From NCBI RefSeq assembly GCF_022846255.1, contig NZ_AP025682.1: DNA of 64,000 nt; one strand, written 5' to 3'. The notes below the pieces were generated by a model. That model saw nothing but the letters and a program-made list of their open reading frames with translations, searched no databases and was not told where the DNA came from. This DNA is from Escherichia coli (lineage in GTDB: Bacteria > Pseudomonadota > Gammaproteobacteria > Enterobacterales > Enterobacteriaceae). This document shows, piece after piece, positions 53,876-64,000 of the stretch (position 1 is its first letter; each line of letters starts with the position of its first letter). Position numbers and translations under genes: made by a program.

Positions 53876-54570
53876 TGCAGATCCTCAAAGTGATCGGCCT
53901 GTTGATGGAGTATCCGGACGAGCTGTTATGGGAATGTAAGGAGGACGCGCTGGCGTTGATCCGCCGCGACGCACCGATGCTTACGGATTTTACCCGCAAC
54001 CTGCTTAACGCGCCGCTGCTGGATAAACAGGCCGAATGGTGCGAAGTGTTTGACCGTGGACGTACCACATCGCTGCTGCTGTTCGAACATGTTCATGCCG
54101 AGTCCCGCGATCGCGGCCAGGCAATGGTGGACCTGCTGGCGGAGTATGAAAAGGTCGGTCTGCAACTGAATTGTAGGGAACTGCCCGATTATCTACCGCT
54201 GTATCTGGAGTATTTAAGCGTACTTCCGGACGATCAGTCGAAAGAAGGATTACTCAACGTTGCGCCGATCCTCGCCCTGCTTGGCGGACGCTTAAAACAA
54301 CGCGAGGCACCGTGGTACGCGTTATTTGACGCCCTGTTGCAACTGGCAGGAAGCCCTCTGTCAAGTGACAGCGTCACAAAACAGATTCGCAGTGAAGAGC
54401 GTGACGACACCCGCCAGGCGCTGGATGCCGTGTGGGAAGAAGAACAGGTGAAGTTTATTGAAGATAACGCCACGGCGTGTGACAGCTCGCCGCTTAATCA
54501 ATATCAGCGACGCTTTAGCCAGGATGTCGCGCCGCAGTATGTCGACATCAGTGCGGGAGGTGGGAAATGA
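53875..54570 (+). CDS. narW: Nitrate reductase Z assembly chaperone (NarJ paralogue)
   Basis: 231 aa. Confidence 0.93.
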
Positions 54571-55247
54571 TTCAGTATCTGAACGTCTTTTTTTACGATA
54601 TCTACCCGTACTTGTGTGGCACGGTTTTTATCCTTGGAAGCTGGCTGCGCTACGATTACGGGCAGTATACCTGGCGTGCCGCCTCCAGCCAGATGCTGGA
54701 TAAACGCGGGATGGTGCTATGGTCGAACTTGTTCCATATCGGCATTCTGGGGATCTTCTTCGGTCATCTGTTCGGCATGTTAACGCCGCACTGGATGTAC
54801 GCGTGGTTTCTGCCGGTGGCGGTAAAACAGCAGATGGCGATGATCCTCGGCGGAATATGCGGGGTATTGACGCTGATTGGCGGTGCGGGGCTACTGGTGC
54901 GTCGTTTAACAAATCCGCGTATCAGGGTGACGTCTTCTGGTGCGGATATCCTGATCCTCGCCATTTTGTTAATTCAGTGCATTCTTGGGTTAACCACCAT
55001 TCCTTTTTCAGCACAACATCCGGACGGCAGTGAAATGATGAAGCTGGTGGGCTGGGCGCAAAGCATTGTCACTTTCCAGGGCGGTGCATCTACGCATCTT
55101 GATGGTGTCGCCTTTATATTCCGCGTTCATCTGGTGCTTGGAATGACCATCTTCCTGCTCTTCCCGTTCACCCGACTGGTGCATGTCTGGAGCGCGCCGT
55201 TTGAGTACTTTACTCGTCGGTATCAGATTGTGCGTTCGCGGCGTTAA
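54567..55247 (+). CDS. narV: Nitrate reductase Z gamma subunit (cytochrome b)
   Basis: 226 aa, polytopic. Confidence 0.93.
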
Positions 55248-55326
55248 TTCTCACGCGGGCCGGATAGCCCTTCGCTCTCCGGCCACTTGCAGGCTATGAT
55301 AGTTCTCCAGCCACAGGAGAACATTA

Positions 55327-56220
55327 ATGAAACCGCAGGTTTACCACGTCGATGCTTTTACCTCTCAACCGTTTCGCGGCAATTCTGCCGGTGTTGTTTT
55401 CCCCGCCGATAATCTCAGTGAAGCGCAAATGCAGCTTATCGCCCGCGAGTTAGGTCATTCGGAAACTGCTTTTCTGCTGCACAGAGACGACAGCGATGTG
55501 CGCATCCGCTACTTTACGCCAACGGTTGAAGTTCCGATTTGTGGTCACGCGACAGTAGCTGCGCACTATGTACGTGCAAAGGTGTTAGGTTTAGGAAATT
55601 GCACGGTCTGGCAAACATCGCTGGCAGGAAAACATCGCGTGACTATCGAAAAGCACAACGATGATTATCGTATTTCGCTGGAACAAGGTACGCCGGGCTT
55701 TGAGCCACCGCTGGAAGGTGAAACACGTGCGGCGATTATCAACGCGCTTCATCTCACTGAAGACGATATTCTGCCAGGCTTGCCAATTCAGGTGGCAACC
55801 ACAGGACACTCAAAAGTGATGATCCCACTGAAACCGGAAGTGGATATCGACGCCCTTTCGCCTGACCTTAATGCGCTGACCGCTATCAGCAAACAGATTG
55901 GCTGCAATGGTTTCTTCCCGTTCCAGATCCGCCCAGACAAAAACGAAACCGACGGTCGTATGTTCTCGCCTGCCATTGGTATTGTGGAAGATCCGGTGAC
56001 TGGCAATGCCAATGGCCCGATGGGTGCATGGTTAGTACATCACAACGTATTGCCCCACGATGGCAACGTGTTGCGTGTTAAAGGCCATCAGGGGCGCGCA
56101 TTAGGGCGTGACGGCGTGATTGAAGTGACGGTGACAATTCGTGATAACCAACCGGAGAAAGTCACCATTTCTGGCGTGGCGGTGATTTTGTTTCATGCCG
56201 AATGGGCAATTGAACTCTGA
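55327..56220 (+). CDS. yddE: PhzF-family isomerase-like protein
   Basis: 297 aa. Confidence 0.9.
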   Translation: MKPQVYHVDAFTSQPFRGNSAGVVFPADNLSEAQMQLIARELGHSETAFLLHRDDSDVRIRYFTPTVEVPICGHATVAAHYVRAKVLGLGNCTVWQTSLAGKHRVTIEKHNDDYRISLEQGTPGFEPPLEGETRAAIINALHLTEDDILPGLPIQVATTGHSKVMIPLKPEVDIDALSPDLNALTAISKQIGCNGFFPFQIRPDKNETDGRMFSPAIGIVEDPVTGNANGPMGAWLVHHNVLPHDGNVLRVKGHQGRALGRDGVIEVTVTIRDNQPEKVTISGVAVILFHAEWAIEL

Positions 56221-56227
56221 AACCGTT

Positions 56228-56303
56228 GCCTGATGCGCTTCGCTTATCAGGTCTACAACCGGGCTAATGTAGGCCGGATAAGGCGTTTACGCCACATCCG
56301 GCA
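56228..56303. repeat. REP (repetitive extragenic palindromic) element pair between yddE and nhoA
   Basis: gcctgatgcgcttcgcttatcaggtctac and tgtaggccggataaggcgtttacgccacatccggca match REP consensus. Confidence 0.75.
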
Positions 56304-56315
56304 ACCTGACATAAA

Positions 56316-57161
56316 TTATTTTCCCGCCTCCGGGTGCGTATCAAACGCCGCCATCACCAGCGCTAACTCATCCACAGTAAAGCCATGTTTCGCATCATCT
56401 ACGCCCAGACCAAACTGTTCCTGCATCACGGCATATAACGACGCCACATCTGGTAGATTTCGCTGCTCAACTGCGTGCCCATTTTCATAATGGGTAAAAT
56501 GAAAATTGGTCAGCGTTAGCTTGCCACCGTCCGGCAAATGGCGACACATCAGCAAATGATGGCGAAAATGCGACTGCGGCCAGTGCGCCGACCAGAAATT
56601 GCCCATCACATAATCGCTTTGTTGCTGCTCGCAGAGATCAAAACGGTACATCGACTGCCAGTGCTGATGATGATTAAACTGCAACACCCAATCATCACCC
56701 TCCTGCAACAACCGATACTCTCCGTGTGGCGTGGTTTGCATGATATCCGGCATTAAACGAATCGGCGCGGTTAGCGTCTGCCCACCGAAACCGACATCAG
56801 CAATCCATTTTTCCCCTTCCAGTTCCACCAACAGCAAACGATGGGTGCGCGGCGGTAATGCTGGCGGATTTGATAACACTACGCGCCCTAACAAGCTGCG
56901 AACGTTAAACCCCAGCTCGCGTAACACCCGCTCAAACACGCCATTCTGCTCAAAACAGTAACCACCACGACGGGCTATCACCAGTTTCTCTTCCAGCGAT
57001 TGATCATCAAGCTGTATTTCCCTCGGCAGCAAAACGTCGAGATTTTCAAACGGAATGGTGCAATTGTGTTTCAGGTGCAATGCACGCAGCGTATCAATAT
57101 TGGCCGCAGCAGCTCCCAACCAGTTAATACGGGCAAAATAATGATTCAGAATGGGCGTCAT
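56316..57161 (-). CDS. nhoA: Arylamine N-acetyltransferase (N-hydroxyarylamine O-acetyltransferase)
   Basis: 281 aa, MTPILNHYFARINW…; catalytic Cys context GGYCFEQN. Confidence 0.93.
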   Translation of the reverse strand: MTPILNHYFARINWLGAAAANIDTLRALHLKHNCTIPFENLDVLLPREIQLDDQSLEEKLVIARRGGYCFEQNGVFERVLRELGFNVRSLLGRVVLSNPPALPPRTHRLLLVELEGEKWIADVGFGGQTLTAPIRLMPDIMQTTPHGEYRLLQEGDDWVLQFNHHQHWQSMYRFDLCEQQQSDYVMGNFWSAHWPQSHFRHHLLMCRHLPDGGKLTLTNFHFTHYENGHAVEQRNLPDVASLYAVMQEQFGLGVDDAKHGFTVDELALVMAAFDTHPEAGK

Positions 57162-57335
57162 CAGGCGTTTCCCTTAGTGGTTTTCTCAACTTATAACCTG
57201 GAATAGACGCCGCACTGGCTATTTTGTGCGATCGCGGACATGCATCACGTTCGCAAATCGCCAATCCCGTTAATTTCGTTACTTATTGCGTTACGAGCTA
57301 CGCTTTTAAAACACCCTTCATAGCGAGGCGATATC

Positions 57336-57905
57336 GTGAGCCGATTCATCCCTGTCGAATTACACCATGCCAGCCGTCTGTTAAATCATGGCCCAACTGT
57401 CTTGATCACCAGTTTCGATGAGCAATCCCAGCGGCGTAACATTATGGCAGCAGCCTGGTCAATGCCGGTGGAGTTTGAACCGCCACGCGTGGCGATTGTG
57501 GTAGATAAATCGACATGGACCAGGGAGTTGATTGAACGTAACGGTAAGTTTGGCATCGTTATCCCGGGCGTTGCGGCGACTAACTGGACGTGGGCGGTGG
57601 GAAGTGTGTCGGGGCGTGATGAAGATAAGTTTAATTGCTATGGTATTCCGGTTGTGAAAGGTCCGGTGCTTGGTTTGCCGCTGGTCGAGGAAAAATGTCT
57701 GGCGTGGATGGAGTGTCGCCTGCTACCTGCAACTTCCGCGCAAGAAAAATACGATACGCTATTTGGCGAAGTGGTATCTGCAGCGGCAGACGCACGAGTA
57801 TTTGTCGAAGGCCGCTGGCAGTTTGATGATGACAAACTCAATACGTTGCATCATTTAGGTGCTGGCACGTTTGTTACCAGCGGCAAGCGTGTTACGGCAG
57901 GTTAA
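57336..57905 (+). CDS. yddH: Flavin-reductase-like domain protein
   Basis: 189 aa. Confidence 0.88.
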   Translation: MSRFIPVELHHASRLLNHGPTVLITSFDEQSQRRNIMAAAWSMPVEFEPPRVAIVVDKSTWTRELIERNGKFGIVIPGVAATNWTWAVGSVSGRDEDKFNCYGIPVVKGPVLGLPLVEEKCLAWMECRLLPATSAQEKYDTLFGEVVSAAADARVFVEGRWQFDDDKLNTLHHLGAGTFVTSGKRVTAG

Positions 57906-57908
57906 GCA

Positions 57909-58136
57909 TTACATGCTGTAACCGGGTTTCTTTATCAAAGCCTCCATTTGGGGCTCGACTTCGGCATCCCAGATAGCTTGCCAAGATTCTGGTTGAATCT
58001 GCTGTAGAGAAATGCTTATCGAGCTATCTTTACTGTTCAGATGGCGAATAATAACGTCGGTAATATCTGCAGCAAGTGCTGCTTTTTGTTGTTCGTCCAG
58101 TTCACGCGGAAAACATTTAATGTCTATGTGCGGCAT
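57909..58136 (-). CDS. pptA: Tautomerase (4-oxalocrotonate tautomerase family)
   Basis: 75 aa from [18 protein letters not shown]… with N-terminal Pro after Met. Confidence 0.88.
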
Positions 58137-58441
58137 GATTGTGCTCCTTTTGAAAGATGTCAGTAAAATTAACACACGTTGTGAATGTCGTGTGTCCGGT
58201 AATGCGTTTTTACGGCAATAATGCCTACTTGAAATTGTACATATTTGTACTACACACTTTTAAATAAAGCGCCAATGAAAACGTTAACTTGCAGAATATA
58301 TTCTTCGCCAACATGCCATTAAGAAAACATCAAGTTCCCGGCTTGCCAATTTGTTAACGCCCATTATAGTTATTCTTGCCCTCACTAAAAATTTTCATCC
58401 GTAATTACCCCCAATAAAAATCCATTCTGGAGACGCTTAAG

Positions 58442-60418
58442 ATGCAGCTTAATCATATCGTTAAAAGTCTGCTAATAACGGGATTATTCACCACCAGTTC
58501 TTTACCTCTCCTCGCGGCGGAAGCTCCTAAAGACGCCACCGCAGCCACGCAACAAGCAAACAATTTACTCTACAACCAGTTGCCGTTTGCCGATAACACT
58601 GACTTTACTGATGCCCATAAAGGTTTTATTGCCCCTATCCCTCAAGACGTGATTAAGGGCGAACAAGGGAATGTTATCTGGGATCCACAACATTACGCTT
58701 TTATCAAAGAAGGCGATAAAGCCCCTGATACGGTGAATCCGAGTTTATGGCGTCAGGCGCAACTGATAAATATCAGCGGGTTATTCGAAGTAACTGAAGG
58801 TGTCTATCAGATTCGCAATCTCGATCTATCAAATATGACCATCATTGAAGGCAAAGAGGGTATTACCGTCGTTGATCCCCTTGTTTCAGCAGAAACAGCC
58901 AAAGTGGGTATGGATCTCTATTACAAAAATCGCGGCAAAAAACCGGTAGTGGCGGTTATCTATACACACAGTCATGTCGATCACTACGGTGGTGTTCGTG
59001 GCGTAATTGATGAAGCTGACGTTAAATCAGGCAAAGTTAAAATCTATGCGCCAGCCGGATTTTTGGAGGAAGCCGTTTCCGAAAACATCATGGCTGGCAA
59101 TGTTATGAGCCGACGAGCCAGTTATATGTATGGCAACTTATTGAAACCTGATGTTAAAGGCCAGGTGGGGGCTGGACTGGGAACGACTACTTCAGCAGGA
59201 ACAGTCACGTTGATTGCTCCTACTAACTACATCACCAAAACCGGACAAATAGAAACTATTGACGGGTTGACTTATGATTTCCTGATGGCGCCAGGTTCTG
59301 AAGCGCCTTCTGAAATGCTGTGGTTTATTGAAGAAAAGAAACTGATCGAAACCGCTGAAGATGTCACGCACACCCTTCATAACACCTATTCGCTGCGTGG
59401 GGCTAAAATTCGCCAACCGCTGCCGTGGTCAAAATATATTAATGAAGCTCTCAATTTGTGGGGTGATAAAGCCGAGATTATTCTCGCTCAACATCACTGG
59501 CCAACCTGGGGCAACGATAACGTGGTCAAACTGCTTAAAAGCCAGCGTGATTTGTATCGTTACATCAATGATCAAACTCTGCGCATGGCTAATCAAGGGA
59601 TGACCCGTGATGAAATTGCCGCAAACTTTAAACTGCCCTCTTCACTGGCTAACACCTGGGCGAATCGCGGCTATTACGGTTCGGTAAGTCATGACGTGAA
59701 AGCAACTTACGTGCTTTATCTCGGCTGGTTTGATGGTAACCCCGCGACGCTTGATGAACTGCCGCCAGAAGAAGGCGCAAAAAAATTCGTCGAGTATATG
59801 GGCGGTGCTGATGCCATTTTACAGAAAGCCAAACAGGATTATGACCAGGGTAATTTCCGCTGGGTTGCCCAAGTTGTTAGTAAGGTGGTGTTTGCCGATC
59901 CAAACAACCAGGCAGCGAGAGATCTGGAAGCTGATGCGCTTGAGCAGTTAGGCTATCAGGCTGAATCTGGGCCGTGGCGTAATTTCTATCTCACTGGTGC
60001 ACAGGAATTGCGTAATGGCGTACAAAAATTACCAACACCAAATACTGCCAGCCCAGACACCGTGCGTGCGATGACGCCGGAGATGTTCTTTGATTATCTT
60101 GCCGTCCATATTAATGGTGAGAAAGCGGCAGATGCCAAAACCGTGTTGAATTTCGATTTTGGTGAAGATGGCGGCACCTATAAAGTGGAGCTTGAAAATG
60201 GTGTTCTCAATCATACCGCTGGTGTAGAGGCTTCGGATGCTGATGCCACTATCACTCTGTCTCGTGATGTATTGAACAAAATTGTACTGAAAGAAGAGAC
60301 GCTGAAAGAAGCCACGGCCAAAGGAGATGTCAAAATTACTGGCAATGCGGAAAAACTCAACGAGCTGTTAGGTTATATGGATAATTTTGAATTTTGGTTC
60401 AATATAGTGACACCATAA
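58442..60418 (+). CDS. Secreted alkyl/aryl-sulfatase of the metallo-beta-lactamase fold (SdsA1/YjcS-like)
   Basis: 658 aa; signal peptide (…TTSSLPLLAAEAP); MBL zinc motif THSHVDHYGG; not at this position in K-12 as far as I recall. Confidence 0.8.
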   Translation: MQLNHIVKSLLITGLFTTSSLPLLAAEAPKDATAATQQANNLLYNQLPFADNTDFTDAHKGFIAPIPQDVIKGEQGNVIWDPQHYAFIKEGDKAPDTVNPSLWRQAQLINISGLFEVTEGVYQIRNLDLSNMTIIEGKEGITVVDPLVSAETAKVGMDLYYKNRGKKPVVAVIYTHSHVDHYGGVRGVIDEADVKSGKVKIYAPAGFLEEAVSENIMAGNVMSRRASYMYGNLLKPDVKGQVGAGLGTTTSAGTVTLIAPTNYITKTGQIETIDGLTYDFLMAPGSEAPSEMLWFIEEKKLIETAEDVTHTLHNTYSLRGAKIRQPLPWSKYINEALNLWGDKAEIILAQHHWPTWGNDNVVKLLKSQRDLYRYINDQTLRMANQGMTRDEIAANFKLPSSLANTWANRGYYGSVSHDVKATYVLYLGWFDGNPATLDELPPEEGAKKFVEYMGGADAILQKAKQDYDQGNFRWVAQVVSKVVFADPNNQAARDLEADALEQLGYQAESGPWRNFYLTGAQELRNGVQKLPTPNTASPDTVRAMTPEMFFDYLAVHINGEKAADAKTVLNFDFGEDGGTYKVELENGVLNHTAGVEASDADATITLSRDVLNKIVLKEETLKEATAKGDVKITGNAEKLNELLGYMDNFEFWFNIVTP

Positions 60419-60432
60419 ATTTACTGCATACC

Positions 60433-60456
60433 GGGCAGGTATCCTGCCCTTTTTTG
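60433..60456 (+). terminator. Rho-independent terminator after the alkylsulfatase gene
   Basis: gggcagg-tat-cctgccc followed by tttttt. Confidence 0.75.
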
Positions 60457-60464
60457 GTTAAAAA

Positions 60465-61562
60465 ATGGCTGAACGAAGAAAAACGCATCACTCATGGAAA
60501 ACCCGCCGCGATATGGTTATTCGCGGCATGACGATTAGTTTGCCATGGTTTGCTTTTATCAATGTCAGTTTTGCATTGATAATTTTGCTGCGCCGTGTTC
60601 TGTTTAATGACCTTACTCCACCCTGGTTAAATGAAAAAAGCCTTATACATTCTATTGATATATCTGCAACGGGTATTCTGCTGATTTGCAGTGGTTTACT
60701 ACTCATCCCTCGGCAAAAAACATTACCTATCCAGGTGCTATTAGTTGCCCTGAGCCTGCTATGGTCATGGTGTAGTTATCACTTTATTGCGTACTGGACG
60801 CTGCAGTTTGCTTATCCACTATGTGTATTATTAATGCTTAGTGGCGTTGTCGCACTTTATTTCCATACCCCATCATTGCTCGCATTTGTCATTCCCTTAT
60901 GGTTCACCACTCCAATAGCGAGTCTTATGCTTAATCAACAGATCAATATTCATTTTGCTGTTGTATGGTGTATTTTTTCACTGGCGCTATATGGTGGGCG
61001 ACTCATTTTGTTACGTTGGTTTGAAGAAGCATGGGTACAAAACAGTTATAACAACCAGTTAATTAATCGCCTTGATGCATTAGCACATCGCGATCCTTTA
61101 ACTGGGATAGCAAACCGACGTGCAATGAACAGTATCTTACACGACGCGATGGATAACGGCGGGTCATTTGCTCTTATTATGCTGGATGTCGATTTTTTTA
61201 AACGTTACAACGACACTTACGGGCATCCTGCTGGGGATCGTTGTCTAATACAAGTTGCCGACGCTCTACAGCGTTCAACTCGCCAGTCGGAGGATGTTGT
61301 TGTCCGTTATGGTGGCGAAGAGTTTGCCATCATACTTTTTAATGCAACATTGCCGGAAGCAGAGACGGTAGCAGCCAGAGTGAAGCAAGAACTTAAACTG
61401 GCAGCTATCCCACATCAGGCATCTGCTGTTAATGCATTCGTTACGGTTAGTCAGGGGATTACCTGTTCTGCTCCCGCAAAAACGGCTGAACAAATTATTT
61501 CAGATGCCGACGCTGCGTTATACCGGGCGAAAGAAAGTGGGCGAAATCGATGGGCTTTATAA
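60465..61562 (+). CDS. Membrane-anchored diguanylate cyclase (multi-TM N-terminal domain + GGDEF domain)
   Basis: ~200 aa hydrophobic N-terminus with 5-6 TM segments, then GGDEF hallmarks: DPLTGIANRR, RYGGEEF, ADAALYRAKESGRNR; AT-rich; start codon uncertain. Confidence 0.8.
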   Translation: MAERRKTHHSWKTRRDMVIRGMTISLPWFAFINVSFALIILLRRVLFNDLTPPWLNEKSLIHSIDISATGILLICSGLLLIPRQKTLPIQVLLVALSLLWSWCSYHFIAYWTLQFAYPLCVLLMLSGVVALYFHTPSLLAFVIPLWFTTPIASLMLNQQINIHFAVVWCIFSLALYGGRLILLRWFEEAWVQNSYNNQLINRLDALAHRDPLTGIANRRAMNSILHDAMDNGGSFALIMLDVDFFKRYNDTYGHPAGDRCLIQVADALQRSTRQSEDVVVRYGGEEFAIILFNATLPEAETVAARVKQELKLAAIPHQASAVNAFVTVSQGITCSAPAKTAEQIISDADAALYRAKESGRNRWAL

Positions 61563-61635
61563 GCATTAGGGGACTGGACAGATTACGTCTCTCCTCGCTT
61601 AACAAGGGCTGACGGAGGGTAATAATTGTCTATAG

Positions 61636-62187
61636 CTATCTTCTTAGCGATGTCTTTCTGGTATCACATTGGATCGGTGCAATTATTTTTCCTTTAATAC
61701 CCATTATGTTAAGAAATTCAGAACCAGCTGTAATCTCATTGTTTTTTTCATTCGTCTTGATCTTCCAAGGAATCTGACTGTGCATTATTGAGAACACACT
61801 AATAACGTGAATCGCTCCCTTGCGACGACTCTTGTCATAAGAGTACCGGAGCGTTTTTCCATCAATTGCAATGACGTCTTTATCATCTGAAGAATGGCAG
61901 TCAAGCATCCAGTTAATAAAGCACTCATGAAATTTTTCAGGACTGATACAGGATACAACTCTGGCAATGGTATCGTGAACAGGAATACCATTATCAAAAT
62001 CACCATATTGCTTCAAAAAATCGAGATGTGTTTCCCCAAAATCCTCTATATCTTCCCAGCCTTCTGCACCCGAAATAACGACACAAATAGTCAACAGTAG
62101 AATATCCGATAATTTATGCTCCACTTTCCAGGCTTGTCTGTAATCGGGGATAATAGAAATATGTTCCATCAATTTTTTAAGTTCCAT
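61636..62187 (-). mobile_element. ISAs1-family (H-repeat, YdcC/YhhI-like) transposase, 5' fragment only (about codons 1-190, frameshifted near its end)
   Basis: [63 protein letters not shown]… is the H-repeat protein N-terminus as I recall it; frame breaks after …IKGKII and similarity ends about 75 bp before the DGC stop. Confidence 0.8.
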
Positions 62188-62360
62188 TTTGTTCTCCTTA
62201 ATTATGTAAAGAGTATTTGATCATGTATAAGCAATAAAAAACAGCTTTAGGTAATGAGGAATATCTCAATTTTTAAACATAAAATGCGAATTATTTAGTA
62301 CAAAAAAGCAGCGTTACGTGATCTTTCCATGGAAAAGAGAGTAATACACTGATTTTTAAC

Positions 62361-62395
62361 GCAGATTGCCAGTGCTACCAACACTGACAATCTGC
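62361..62395 (+). promoter_or_regulatory. 14-bp imperfect inverted repeat upstream of the symE-like gene (candidate operator)
   Basis: gcagattgccagtg-N7-cactgacaatctgc, one mismatch, about 35 bp upstream of ATG 62428. Confidence 0.35.
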
Positions 62396-62427
62396 TCACC
62401 ACAAGCAACTAACAGAGGTAGTTAATC

Positions 62428-62747
62428 ATGGCTGAACACGATATTACGCCAGAAGTCGCCATTTCCAAAACACAGCGCCGCTATAAAGTCGGCTATGTCA
62501 GAGCCCGCCACATAAACAGCAAACCACGTACTACTCACGACACCCCAGCCTGAACCTTAAGGGCGACTGGCTGAAAGAGGCCGGATTTGATACCGGACGG
62601 GGTGTCACGGTGAAGATTTCGGAGGGGTGCCTGACCATCATCGCTGACAGTGACGAGGTGCAGGAACTGCGGGAGGAACTTTATCAGGTTAAACAGGTGG
62701 TTAAGGGGATGCGGAACGGGATGTTTAGTGTGCTGAACGAGAATTAA
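62428..62747 (+). pseudogene. SymE-family (type I toxin-like, AbrB-fold) gene with an apparent -1 frameshift
   Basis: Frame A gives MAEHDITPEVAISKTQRRYKVGYVRARHINSKPRTTHDTPA then TGA at 62551; frame -1 continues LNLKGDWLKEAGFDTGRGVTVKISEGCLTII…, resembling the SymE core (ITLKGQWLEAAGF…EGC) as I recall it. Confidence 0.6.
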
Positions 62748-62797
62748 ATAATAAAAAAGCCGGGGAGATTTAAAATCTTCCCGGCTTTCTTTATCAT

Positions 62798-63100
62798 CTA
62801 AAAAGGTAATAATCCTCTAATAGGAGAAAATTTTGTAATATCAATACCTTGTAATTTAAAGTAATTAAAAGCATCTTCTATATTGGAAAACGCACTAATT
62901 TCTTCAGTTGCATAATCTTCGAACACTTCCATTTTATTTTCTGGTATTTTGAAAAAATAGGTATTGTATTTTTCATCCTGTTTTTTAATGGCATATTGGA
63001 AAAAATAACTTTCACCATTTATTTCCTTTATCTCATCAAAACCTCTAACCTTACCATTCTCTATAGCAACAATTAATTTTTCAATAGACAAATCAACCAT
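62798..63100 (-). CDS. Small acidic protein, candidate immunity protein
   Basis: 100 aa, D/E-rich; start overlaps the stop of the upstream basic ORF by 8 bp; AT-rich codon usage. Confidence 0.5.
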   Translation of the reverse strand: MVDLSIEKLIVAIENGKVRGFDEIKEINGESYFFQYAIKKQDEKYNTYFFKIPENKMEVFEDYATEEISAFSNIEDAFNYFKLQGIDITKFSPIRGLLPF

Positions 63101-63440
63101 CTATATCTATCCTCACCATTGTCCCATCAGAACGTTTAATATTTATATGAGGCAAAGAACCATGCCCTGTGCCTTTATGGTCATCATGACCATATACACG
63201 ACCAGTATTAGAATCAATAGGGTAATCTTTCCTATAACGGACAGTACCATCTCTTTTCTTAAATTGTTCCATCTTATGTTTTTTTCTAATACCGGCGGCA
63301 TCCTGCGAACTGATCCCTCTTACTTTTTGAGCATCAGGAAAGGCCTCCATCAATAAATCATGGGCTTCCTGTTTTGATTTAACTGTGACAACGGTTCCTT
63401 GAGGCCCCAGGGCAAGATTACGAAAGCCCGCTCCCCGCAA
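63093..63440 (-). CDS. Small basic His-rich protein, candidate orphan toxin domain (possibly HNH/EndoVII-type nuclease tip)
   Basis: 115 aa, K/R-rich with [21 protein letters not shown]; no Rhs DPxGL or CdiA VENN junction visible; its start overlaps the ISAs1 transposase stop, so the N-terminal part may not be genuine. Confidence 0.45.
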
Positions 63441-64000
63441 GGACTGACGCCAGATAGTTTCTGTCCATGGCTGCTTTTCGCATCTTACGTCTTAACCCTG
63501 CCTTGAATACCTTATCATTCGTCAAAATATTAATAGCGATGTGCCGTATCCCTGAAAATAATTCTGCTGCATTTCCTCTTCTTATTTTGCAGTCGTCTTC
63601 ATTCATTACCACGTCCAGACGCCAGTGCAGCTTATTCTCCACGTGCCAGTGGTTTCGGATTGCTGTGGCGAACTTCTCTGCGGTTAAATCAGCAGAACTG
63701 ATATAATATCTGACCGTCATTTCTGGCTATTTCTTTTGTTCTGCTATTATGGACCGAAAGGAGACTGCCACGCATAATTTCTTCAGTCCTTTCCATTCAA
63801 ACGTGAAATCAATAAGTTCATCAGGGACATCGCAAACAATATGAAGACGGATTTCTTCTCTGCCGTGACTTTTTTCACTAATTGCGTAACTGTCATGCTC
63901 TGGATTATTCAATTCTTTCAGCGGAAATTTTTCCTCGAAGGCTTTATTTAGCCGCCCCTGGTTTCCTTTTACAGCGAATAAATAATCACCTCCCTGTTTT
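63418..64000 (-). mobile_element. ISAs1-family (H-repeat) transposase, 3' portion, interrupted by an in-frame TAG; continues beyond the window
   Basis: Reverse-strand translation from the window edge reads [43 protein letters not shown]…AEQKK-(TAG at 63727..63729)[45 protein letters not shown]…. Confidence 0.8.

Follow-up and report, generated by a model that had tools for sequence, protein, structure and literature searches.

Insertion sequences (IS) can delete the DNA beside them. Such adjacent (one-ended) deletions have been described for IS1, IS903 and Tn5/Tn10-type elements, and they leave one deletion end flush with an intact IS, with neither microhomology nor a target-site duplication. 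The H-repeats of the Rhs loci of Escherichia coli belong to the ISAs1 family, and among them is the element of K-12 that carries ydcC (placed in the 'ISEc5 family' in RefSeq). For ISAs1/H-repeat elements the mechanism of adjacent deletion has never been demonstrated, and transposition of H-repeats in E. coli has not been observed experimentally (PMC3032704). The E. coli window analyzed here (64,000 nucleotides of contig NZ_AP025682.1) contains, next to the tautomerase gene pptA, a gene for an alkyl/aryl sulfatase, a gene for a MASE5-GGDEF diguanylate cyclase and, behind a short spacer, an H-repeat relic with half of its transposase. In K-12 both genes are missing at this locus, and the K-12 allele shares with the described adjacent deletions the flush end, the intact IS and the lack of microhomology and target duplication. 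The two-gene segment is probably ancestral to E. coli at pptA, and the polymorphism would have been made by loss and not by gain. A joint probability of about 0.75 is assigned to this and to the rest of the explanation developed below.

The neighborhood of the window is the narV-yddE-nhoA-yddH-pptA region of E. coli. It was compared by BLASTN with strain DH1 as the K-12 reference, and IS positions are numbered along the ydcC H-repeat/ISAs1 element of K-12 (1291 bp). Window positions 54001-58225 match K-12 with 93.4% identity, up to 89 bp upstream of pptA. Further matches are found at 61637-62306, to positions 596-1266 of the ydcC element (91.2% identity), and at 63408-64000, to positions 1-593 (97.6% identity); the latter belongs to a second H-repeat, here called copy B. 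In K-12, an intact ydcC (378 amino acids) starts 100 bp from pptA and stands in tandem with the yncI H-repeat pseudogene. The sequence CAGGGCAAGATTACG reached at the K-12 junction forms the outer end of the ydcC H-repeat on its 3' side. A first-pass annotation of the window had already recognized this intact H-repeat gene beside pptA in K-12. It had also correctly noted that the transposase similarity stops abruptly near 61640, about 75 bp from the cyclase stop: the similarity to ydcC begins at 61637 (IS position 596 of 1291), and the gap to the stop at 61562 measures 74 bp. Its two-gene segment is indeed absent from K-12, whereas the limits given for it needed correction. The left edge does not lie at 58137, the base that immediately precedes the pptA start codon, but at 58225|58226, and the missing DNA amounts to 3411 bp instead of ~3.3 kb.

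Identity to K-12 is ~97% across most of the window, with lower values at 50-52 kb (94.8%), 54-56 kb (91.2%) and 56-58 kb (95.5%). This dip just before the breakpoint suggests long-diverged haplotypes or recombination imports that are linked to the presence/absence polymorphism.

The genomic context was surveyed by scanning the cyclase protein against one genome per species, followed by gene mapping, and also in contigs of E. albertii and E. whittamii type, whose sulfatases cluster with that of the window. In E. albertii (contig L091) the DNA is colinear with window positions 54001-60466, from narZ to the cyclase start, at 86% nucleotide identity, and it runs unbroken across 58225/6; the cyclase is absent from this contig. 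The E. whittamii-type sequences L092 and L093 are colinear with 54001-61671 at 92.7%, including the internal junction of the relic. In Escherichia sp. E1V33, pptA is followed by a partial (5'-deleted) sulfatase gene, the cyclase gene and the relic. Moreover, an order free of both IS and Rhs elements, narV-yddE-nhoA-yddH-pptA-sulfatase-cyclase-yncG-ansP-yncE, was observed in SCPM-O-B-8794 and E69 (divergent 'E. coli' representatives) and in EC332. In EC332 and SCPM-O-B-8794 the TAA of the cyclase directly abuts the complement of the yncG stop, with zero intergenic DNA, while in E69 yncG is mostly deleted. Because no DNA separates the cyclase and yncG stops in these IS-free genomes, everything after 61562 in the window can be regarded as inserted material. 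Besides the 5'-deleted sulfatase of E1V33 and the missing cyclase of the E. albertii contig, independent decay is also seen in other lineages: the sulfatase is split over two reading frames in SCPM-O-B-8794, and pptA has an internal stop in EC332. Finally, two Citrobacter species (L009 and L010) carry a 64%-identical MASE5-GGDEF gene inside the narV-yddE-nhoA-yddH...yncG-ansP block. Their order is yddH-cyclase-pptA-yncG, with pptA and the cyclase swapped in comparison to Escherichia and with no sulfatase at that place.

The spread of the segment among these genomes, and an E. albertii copy that is as divergent as expected of an outgroup, point to a segment that is ancestral at pptA. From the comparison, the ancestral order would read yddH-pptA-alkyl sulfatase-MASE5-GGDEF cyclase, with yncG directly behind it on the other strand and then ansP. 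The first-pass annotation had offered two scenarios: a ~3.3-kb segment that replaced the 3' half of the transposase and the intergenic region, or a loss in K-12. With an ancestral segment the replacement is left unsupported, as the outgroup colinearity and the IS-free E. coli make the segment older than the IS.

The loss in K-12 is supported by the strains OkiPb01695 and 2018-05-2CC. Both have a K-12-like narZ-pptA backbone (98.1% identity to K-12 for OkiPb01695) and both keep remnants of the sulfatase and cyclase genes between pptA and a ydcC-type element. Past the K-12 breakpoint they contain the equivalents of window positions 58226-58369 (from the region upstream of the sulfatase), 60297-60545 (the sulfatase 3' end and the cyclase 5' end) and 61277-61622 (the cyclase 3' end and most of the spacer), followed by the H-repeat terminus CAGGGCAAG. 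The element behind it is complete in OkiPb01695 (1291 bp, 97.4% identical to that of K-12), and in 2018-05-2CC a truncated transposase accompanies the 3' terminus. Overlaps of 2 bp and 9 bp are found at the two internal deletions; they are typical of slippage or illegitimate recombination. Taking another 720 bp away from the OkiPb01695-type allele, right up to the end of the IS, yields the K-12 allele. Both strains represent a pre-deletion allele, in which the IS is in place and remnants of the DNA that K-12 has lost still lie beside it. The OkiPb01695 element has two further peculiarities (L086, 8330-9750): a group II intron with a frameshifted ltrA interrupts its final ~25 bp, and its outermost 5' sequence matches the relic instead of K-12, a hint of a recombinant IS.

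At the junction, K-12 reads ...AATGCC|CAGGGCAAG and the intact 378-amino-acid ydcC has been kept; the deletion endpoint is the outer IS terminus (CAGGG). The window continues with |TACTTG... at this point, and OkiPb01695 reads ...GACTGACGG| before its IS. Alignment with K-12, as had been proposed along with the first-pass annotation, revealed no shared base at the join 58225|58226 (0 bp of microhomology) and no target-site duplication. Since a random deletion would rarely end on the exact terminal base of an IS, the best explanation of this junction appears to be an IS-end-directed event. A one-ended deletion is favored because in the OkiPb01695-type allele the IS already stands where it is needed. 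In a census of 5426 complete E. coli genomes, the K-12 junction between the pptA flank and the IS terminus was found in 2382 (~44%). At least 80% of window positions 57300-62800 occurs in one place in 353 genomes, and the 3' end of the cyclase stands beside an H-repeat terminus in three.

The transposase half in the window is part of a relic of an ISAs1-family member and not of a functional member. Its open reading frame (61636-62187, minus strand) is frameshifted and covers residues 1-170 of the 378 of YdcC at 85% identity; the counterpart in strain MEI003 is labeled 'frameshifted; incomplete; missing C-terminus' in RefSeq. The DDE_Tnp_1_assoc domain is complete (1.3e-33), and of DDE_Tnp_1 there is a fragment below the Pfam cut-off (profile positions 3-73 of 200), the catalytic half having been deleted. 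Along the ydcC element, homology extends over positions 596-1291 at 91% and over 1-64 at ~65-70%, while 65-595 are absent. The relic (91%) and copy B (97.6%) resemble the ydcC element of K-12 in their Pfam domains, the second of which is fragmentary in the relic, and in termini of the CAGGG type, which in the relic are altered at the 5' end and putative at the 3' end. The relic differs from intact H-repeats in being frameshifted, in a strongly diverged 3' stub and in the absence of ~530 bp of the interior with the C-terminal 51% of the transposase. Its 5' end reads ...GATCTTTCCATG, with CCATG one mismatch away from the CCCTG of intact copies, and its putative 3' end reads CTGGAC versus CAGGGC. 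The identity to ydcC is mosaic, 72-88% at positions 600-800 and 93-98% at 800-1266, a pattern which suggests that the 5' part was later gene-converted by younger copies.

The junction of cyclase, spacer and relic was found as a single copy in 346 of the 5426 genomes, in 342 of them at 99% identity or more, and an identical relic junction is present in E1V33 and in the E. whittamii-type L092. Whichever way the relic itself is read, its break lies wholly inside the IS, is older than much of the diversification of Escherichia and has nothing to do with the sulfatase/cyclase segment. A truncation common to so many relatives refutes the proposed replacement by the segment and leaves the reality of the junction untouched.

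The relic itself can be read in two ways, and both turn on the spacer. This stretch was analyzed by local alignment with shuffles and by MAFFT; a global alignment with cheap gap extension gave scattered blocks of 2-14 bp. When the whole IS is searched on both strands, the best local alignment coincides exactly with IS 7-64; it is correctly oriented, stops at the junction and has a score of 30 (shuffles: 23.2 +/- 2.8). In the MAFFT alignment, the spacer equivalents of E1V33 and OkiPb01695 are also colinear with IS 1-64, and 23 columns are invariant over three spacer versions and two IS termini, including AGATTACG and AAGG.CTGACG. In L092 (11120-11260) a relic of ~150 bp consists of a diverged 3' stub, ~36 bp that begin at IS 596 and a 5' terminal repeat of canonical form, ...CTTTCCCTG, which ties the spacer piece to that repeat. 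Together with the complete lack of DNA between the cyclase and yncG stops in IS-free genomes, these alignments make it fairly probable that the relic is an old H-repeat with an internal deletion of ~530 bp (positions 65-595). The other reading is a simple 3'-truncated IS: the 74 bp before 61637 would be unrelated island or filler DNA, and a deletion would have taken the 3' half of the IS with its original flank. It would account for the modest likeness of the spacer to the IS terminus (~65-70% identity, with a score equaled by 9 of 300 shuffles), for the occurrence of the spacer at the pptA locus only, in one place per genome, and for OkiPb01695, in which the complete IS does not include the greater part of the spacer. 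A full-length ISAs1 member with ...TAATAATTGTCTATAGC at positions 575-595 would fit such a truncation. Given the position and orientation of the best alignment, the invariant columns and the L092 relic, it is considered unlikely.

For the K-12 loss, too, a different route can be envisaged: homologous recombination between two direct H-repeat copies, one at 58225/6 and one downstream of the cyclase. RecA recombination between IS copies is commonplace, and it gives the same product, with the same flush junction and the same lack of target duplication. H-repeats are multicopy (median of 5 places per genome) and occur in tandem or nested at this locus, and activity of their transposase has never been shown in E. 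coli (PMC3032704). The two-IS intermediate that this route predicts, in which an IS 5' end is joined to the DNA upstream of the sulfatase, was however found in 0 of the 5426 genomes at 80% coverage or more. In the OkiPb01695-type allele the ydcC element already lies to the right of the remnants, so that a second insertion is unneeded; recombination between two copies is therefore held to be an improbable, if credible, source of the K-12 allele. Far less likely still is a horizontal gain, in which a K-12-like ancestor would have acquired the ~3.3-kb segment and this would have overwritten the ydcC 3' half together with the DNA between pptA and ydcC. The lower GC content of 58226-61636 (0.444 versus 0.514 in the narV-pptA flank), an IS terminus at the K-12 side with a broken IS at the other, and continuity across 58225/6 in only 686 of the 5426 genomes could be cited for it. 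These are outweighed by the colinearity of the segment with pptA in E. albertii, E. whittamii-type genomes, E1V33 and IS-free E. coli, by the syntenic cyclase in Citrobacter, and by the decayed pieces of both genes that K-12-like strains keep beside a ydcC-type element. In addition, both genes coexist with an intact ydcC in strain PM06121, and the DNA just before 61637 aligns to the terminus of the IS itself, so that the break falls inside the IS.

An ancestral segment lost by IS-end-mediated deletion is hence preferred, and several observations weigh against it. A handful of outgroup genomes, and no phylogeny, served to judge the ancestral state, and the cyclase matches (one genome per species) include no representative of E. 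fergusonii, E. marmotae or Salmonella. No target-site duplication surrounds the relic, and the same holds for the K-12 ydcC element and for the PM06121 and OkiPb01695 copies, so that no normal insertion products are seen. The spacer resembles the IS terminus only to the modest degree given above. In OkiPb01695 the spacer stub precedes a complete IS and the element follows relic position ~43, a layout that requires an extra step of nested insertion and recombination. PM06121 combines both intact genes and the relic junction with a full ydcC element at relic position ~727, which makes the history more tangled than a single linear series. The involvement of a transposase in the deletion, finally, is something we infer from junction geometry only.

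PM06121 was also considered as a simple common ancestor. This was rejected, as the relic junction is already there and the full IS is nested in the relic without target duplication. In this strain (L088, 7321-14000) an effector island of the type VI secretion system with PAAR, VgrG and an M35 peptidase replaces Rhs, and a 156-bp fragment of an IS 5' end lies ~230 bp from yncG. At the edge of RhsE, H-repeats recur nested in or beside one another, always without target duplications.

The following course of events would be compatible with these alleles. Initially, an ISAs1-family H-repeat may have landed a few bases past the cyclase stop, where the variable Rhs/VgrG effector island now sits. The old element then lost approximately positions 65-595, including the C-terminal 51% of its transposase, to give the relic now at 61574-62331; the junction of this step is observed directly, and its timing, before or during Escherichia diversification, would follow from its presence in E. 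coli, E1V33 and E. whittamii-type genomes alike. In another lineage, a younger and intact ydcC-type H-repeat presumably came to lie inside the terminal stub of the relic, the arrangement seen in OkiPb01695. Lastly, an ancestor of the K-12-type strains would have lost the DNA from the outer terminus of this IS to the breakpoint 89 bp upstream of pptA. An IS-end-mediated adjacent deletion, i.e. intramolecular transposition of one end, is the mechanism judged most likely, given that the deletion coincides exactly with the IS terminus on one side and that neither microhomology nor a target-site duplication is present.

Each part of the locus belongs to a known kind: the relic is an ISAs1/H-repeat, the sulfatase a paralogue of the SdsA1/YjcS type and the cyclase an accessory enzyme of the MASE5-GGDEF type. 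Both the relic and copy B stand at the edge of the RhsE region (b1455-b1461), and the process is ordinary accessory-genome turnover at this known rearrangement hot spot, where IS-flush deletion is expected. The locus offers a worked example of an IS-flush deletion with surviving intermediates, in an IS family whose activity in E. coli is unshown. K-12 represents the derived, gene-poor state and, with ~44% of the complete E. coli genomes, lacks both genes at the locus. This is relevant to those who use K-12 as reference for signaling by cyclic dimeric GMP (c-di-GMP) or for sulfur-ester scavenging. A bolder and rather doubtful proposal would be that H-repeats are genuinely active in Escherichia, insert preferentially into or beside older relics and then erase neighboring genes by one-ended deletion. 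The OkiPb01695 copy (~43), the PM06121 copy (~727) and the ydcC/yncI tandem of K-12 are cases that fit such a preference. If true, the locus would supply natural alleles from before, during and after the loss, with which the activity of an H-repeat transposase could be demonstrated. As a sub-case, the ~150-bp E. whittamii-type relic with both termini may be a mobilizable miniature element. The layout of this relic resembles that of miniature inverted-repeat transposable elements; it is followed by two uncharacterized genes, and another IS 5' fragment lies 1.8 kb further on.

Table 1. Features of the window around the pptA locus, with their coordinates and the evidence for each
Feature	Position	Strand	Evidence and remarks
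pptA (tautomerase)	57909..58136	-	Open reading frame list; mapped from MEI003 annotation (L002 4610..4837); K-12 homology spans gene; conserved left flank
Left breakpoint versus K-12	58225..58226	.	Junction alignment; window ...CAATAATGCC|TACTTGAAATTG, K-12 ...CAATAATGCC|CAGGGCAAGATTACG
DNA absent from K-12 (3411 bp)	58226..61636	.	BLASTN versus DH1; sulfatase promoter region, sulfatase, cyclase and 74 bp past the cyclase stop
Best sigma-70-like match, TTGCCA-16-TATAGT (10/12)	58343..58370	+	Consensus scan only; site count not above shuffle expectation
Metallo-beta-lactamase (MBL)-fold (type III) alkyl/aryl sulfatase, predicted periplasmic, 658 amino acids	58442..60418	+	Pfam Lactamase_B + Alkyl_sulf_dimr + Alkyl_sulf_C
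Terminator-like hairpin GGGCAGG-TAT-CCTGCCC, then T-run, between sulfatase and cyclase	60433..60449	+	
MASE5-GGDEF diguanylate cyclase, 365 amino acids	60465..61562	+	Pfam MASE5 + GGDEF (GGDEF 1.4e-48)
Probable diverged 3'-terminal remnant of relic	61574..61636	-	MAFFT, colinear with H-repeat positions 1-64; CTGGACAGATTACG... versus CAGGGCAAGATTACG...
Internal junction of relic, ~IS 64 joined to 596	61636..61637	.	Junction alignment and MAFFT
5' part of ISAs1/H-repeat relic, IS 596-1291	61637..62331	-	BLASTN to 62306; with the terminal inverted repeat, the alignment extends to 62331
symE/symR-like type I toxin-antitoxin module and isrA-like small RNA	62358..62757	.	Rfam symR 48 bits (below gathering), isrA 96 bits (above gathering); MEI003 annotation
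Copy B, ydcC-type H-repeat, IS 1-593 (YdcC residues 186-378)	63408..64000	-	97.6% identity to K-12 ydcC; cut by window end

The closest described relatives of the sulfatase are SdsA1 of Pseudomonas aeruginosa, PSdsA and YjcS of E. coli. The window protein displays the same full three-domain architecture and a metal motif of the HxHxDH type (HSHVDH), which places it among the type III MBL-fold alkyl sulfatases, and it aligns end to end with the structures 7tl5, 4nur (PSdsA), 4pdx (YjcS) and 2cfu (SdsA1) of the Protein Data Bank (PDB). It is a paralogue and not an orthologue of K-12 YjcS, scoring 699 bits against YjcS and 1192 bits against 7tl5. With its signal-peptide-like N-terminus, the protein is predicted to be a periplasmic alkyl-sulfate esterase, intact-looking in the window. 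Its exact cluster takes in proteins from E. albertii, E. whittamii and Citrobacter, and the sulfatases of C. sedlakii and C. amalonaticus are at least 90% identical to it. The putative promoter match upstream of the gene falls within the DNA lost from K-12. Given the strong hairpin terminator between the two genes, sulfatase and cyclase are probably transcribed separately and do not form an operon.

The cyclase is predicted to be a membrane-sensor c-di-GMP synthase and likewise looks intact in the window. RefSeq places its start at 60513 (349 amino acids), and both versions of the start occur in databases. The active site is intact, with GGEEF in RYGGEEF, as expected for a GGDEF cyclase. The RxxD I-site, an optional feature of such cyclases, is not found five residues before GGEEF: the region (61290-61330) reads RQSEDVVVRYGGEEF (RQSED), with the arginine one residue out of register. 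On account of this RQSED in place of RxxD, product feedback inhibition may be absent. Povolotsky and Hengge (2016) reportedly named further accessory cyclases; no name is given here to the window cyclase. A comparable protein is DgcX of enteroaggregative E. coli (EAEC) and O104:H4, which is also a membrane-sensor GGDEF protein present in some E. coli and absent from K-12. DgcX is encoded at the lambda attachment site attB or beside prophages, and its eight-helix sensor domain of ~270 amino acids is related to YcdT/YeaI (PMC4287979). The window cyclase differs from DgcX in its MASE5 domain and its location at pptA, and it is ancestral and not phage-borne. An identification of the two was rejected on the grounds of both locus and sensor domain.

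Directly outside the 5' end of the relic, the symE/symR-like module forms the first cargo of the Rhs-associated island. The symE of the window is frameshifted by a 10-bp deletion at 62522/62523 in comparison to the intact 109-amino-acid gene of MEI003. Further to the right, the terminus of copy B lies in an orphan Rhs-tip open reading frame (63093-63440), and an immunity-sized open reading frame accompanies the Rhs tip. Copy B is absent from MEI003 and from all other genomes sharing the relic. It is cut at IS 593, 2-3 bp short of the relic start at 596, and the two pieces look like complementary halves. That they are halves of one split element was nevertheless rejected: beside the break their identities to ydcC are 72-88% and 97.6%, respectively, and the relic junction is found in the 346 genomes and in other Escherichia species without copy B. 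The idea that the window end reflects an assembly break at a repeat was found unconvincing as well, since relic and ydcC-type copies are near-identical only from ~800 and not from 596, and since the window start is an arbitrary cut inside a gene.

Further variants of the locus were encountered. In strain M3, symE and an Rhs core directly follow pptA with no H-repeat, and in some genomes an ISEc1-type ydcC stands beside yddH, pptA itself being missing. In the B-lineage strain Rosetta2-DE3, a BL21 derivative (L005, 5882-10881), a 399-bp ISAs1 fragment separates pptA from lipopolysaccharide-core genes (a truncated glycosyltransferase, rfaY and a member of the O-antigen ligase family). This locus is a large rearrangement with an H-repeat fragment at its junction.

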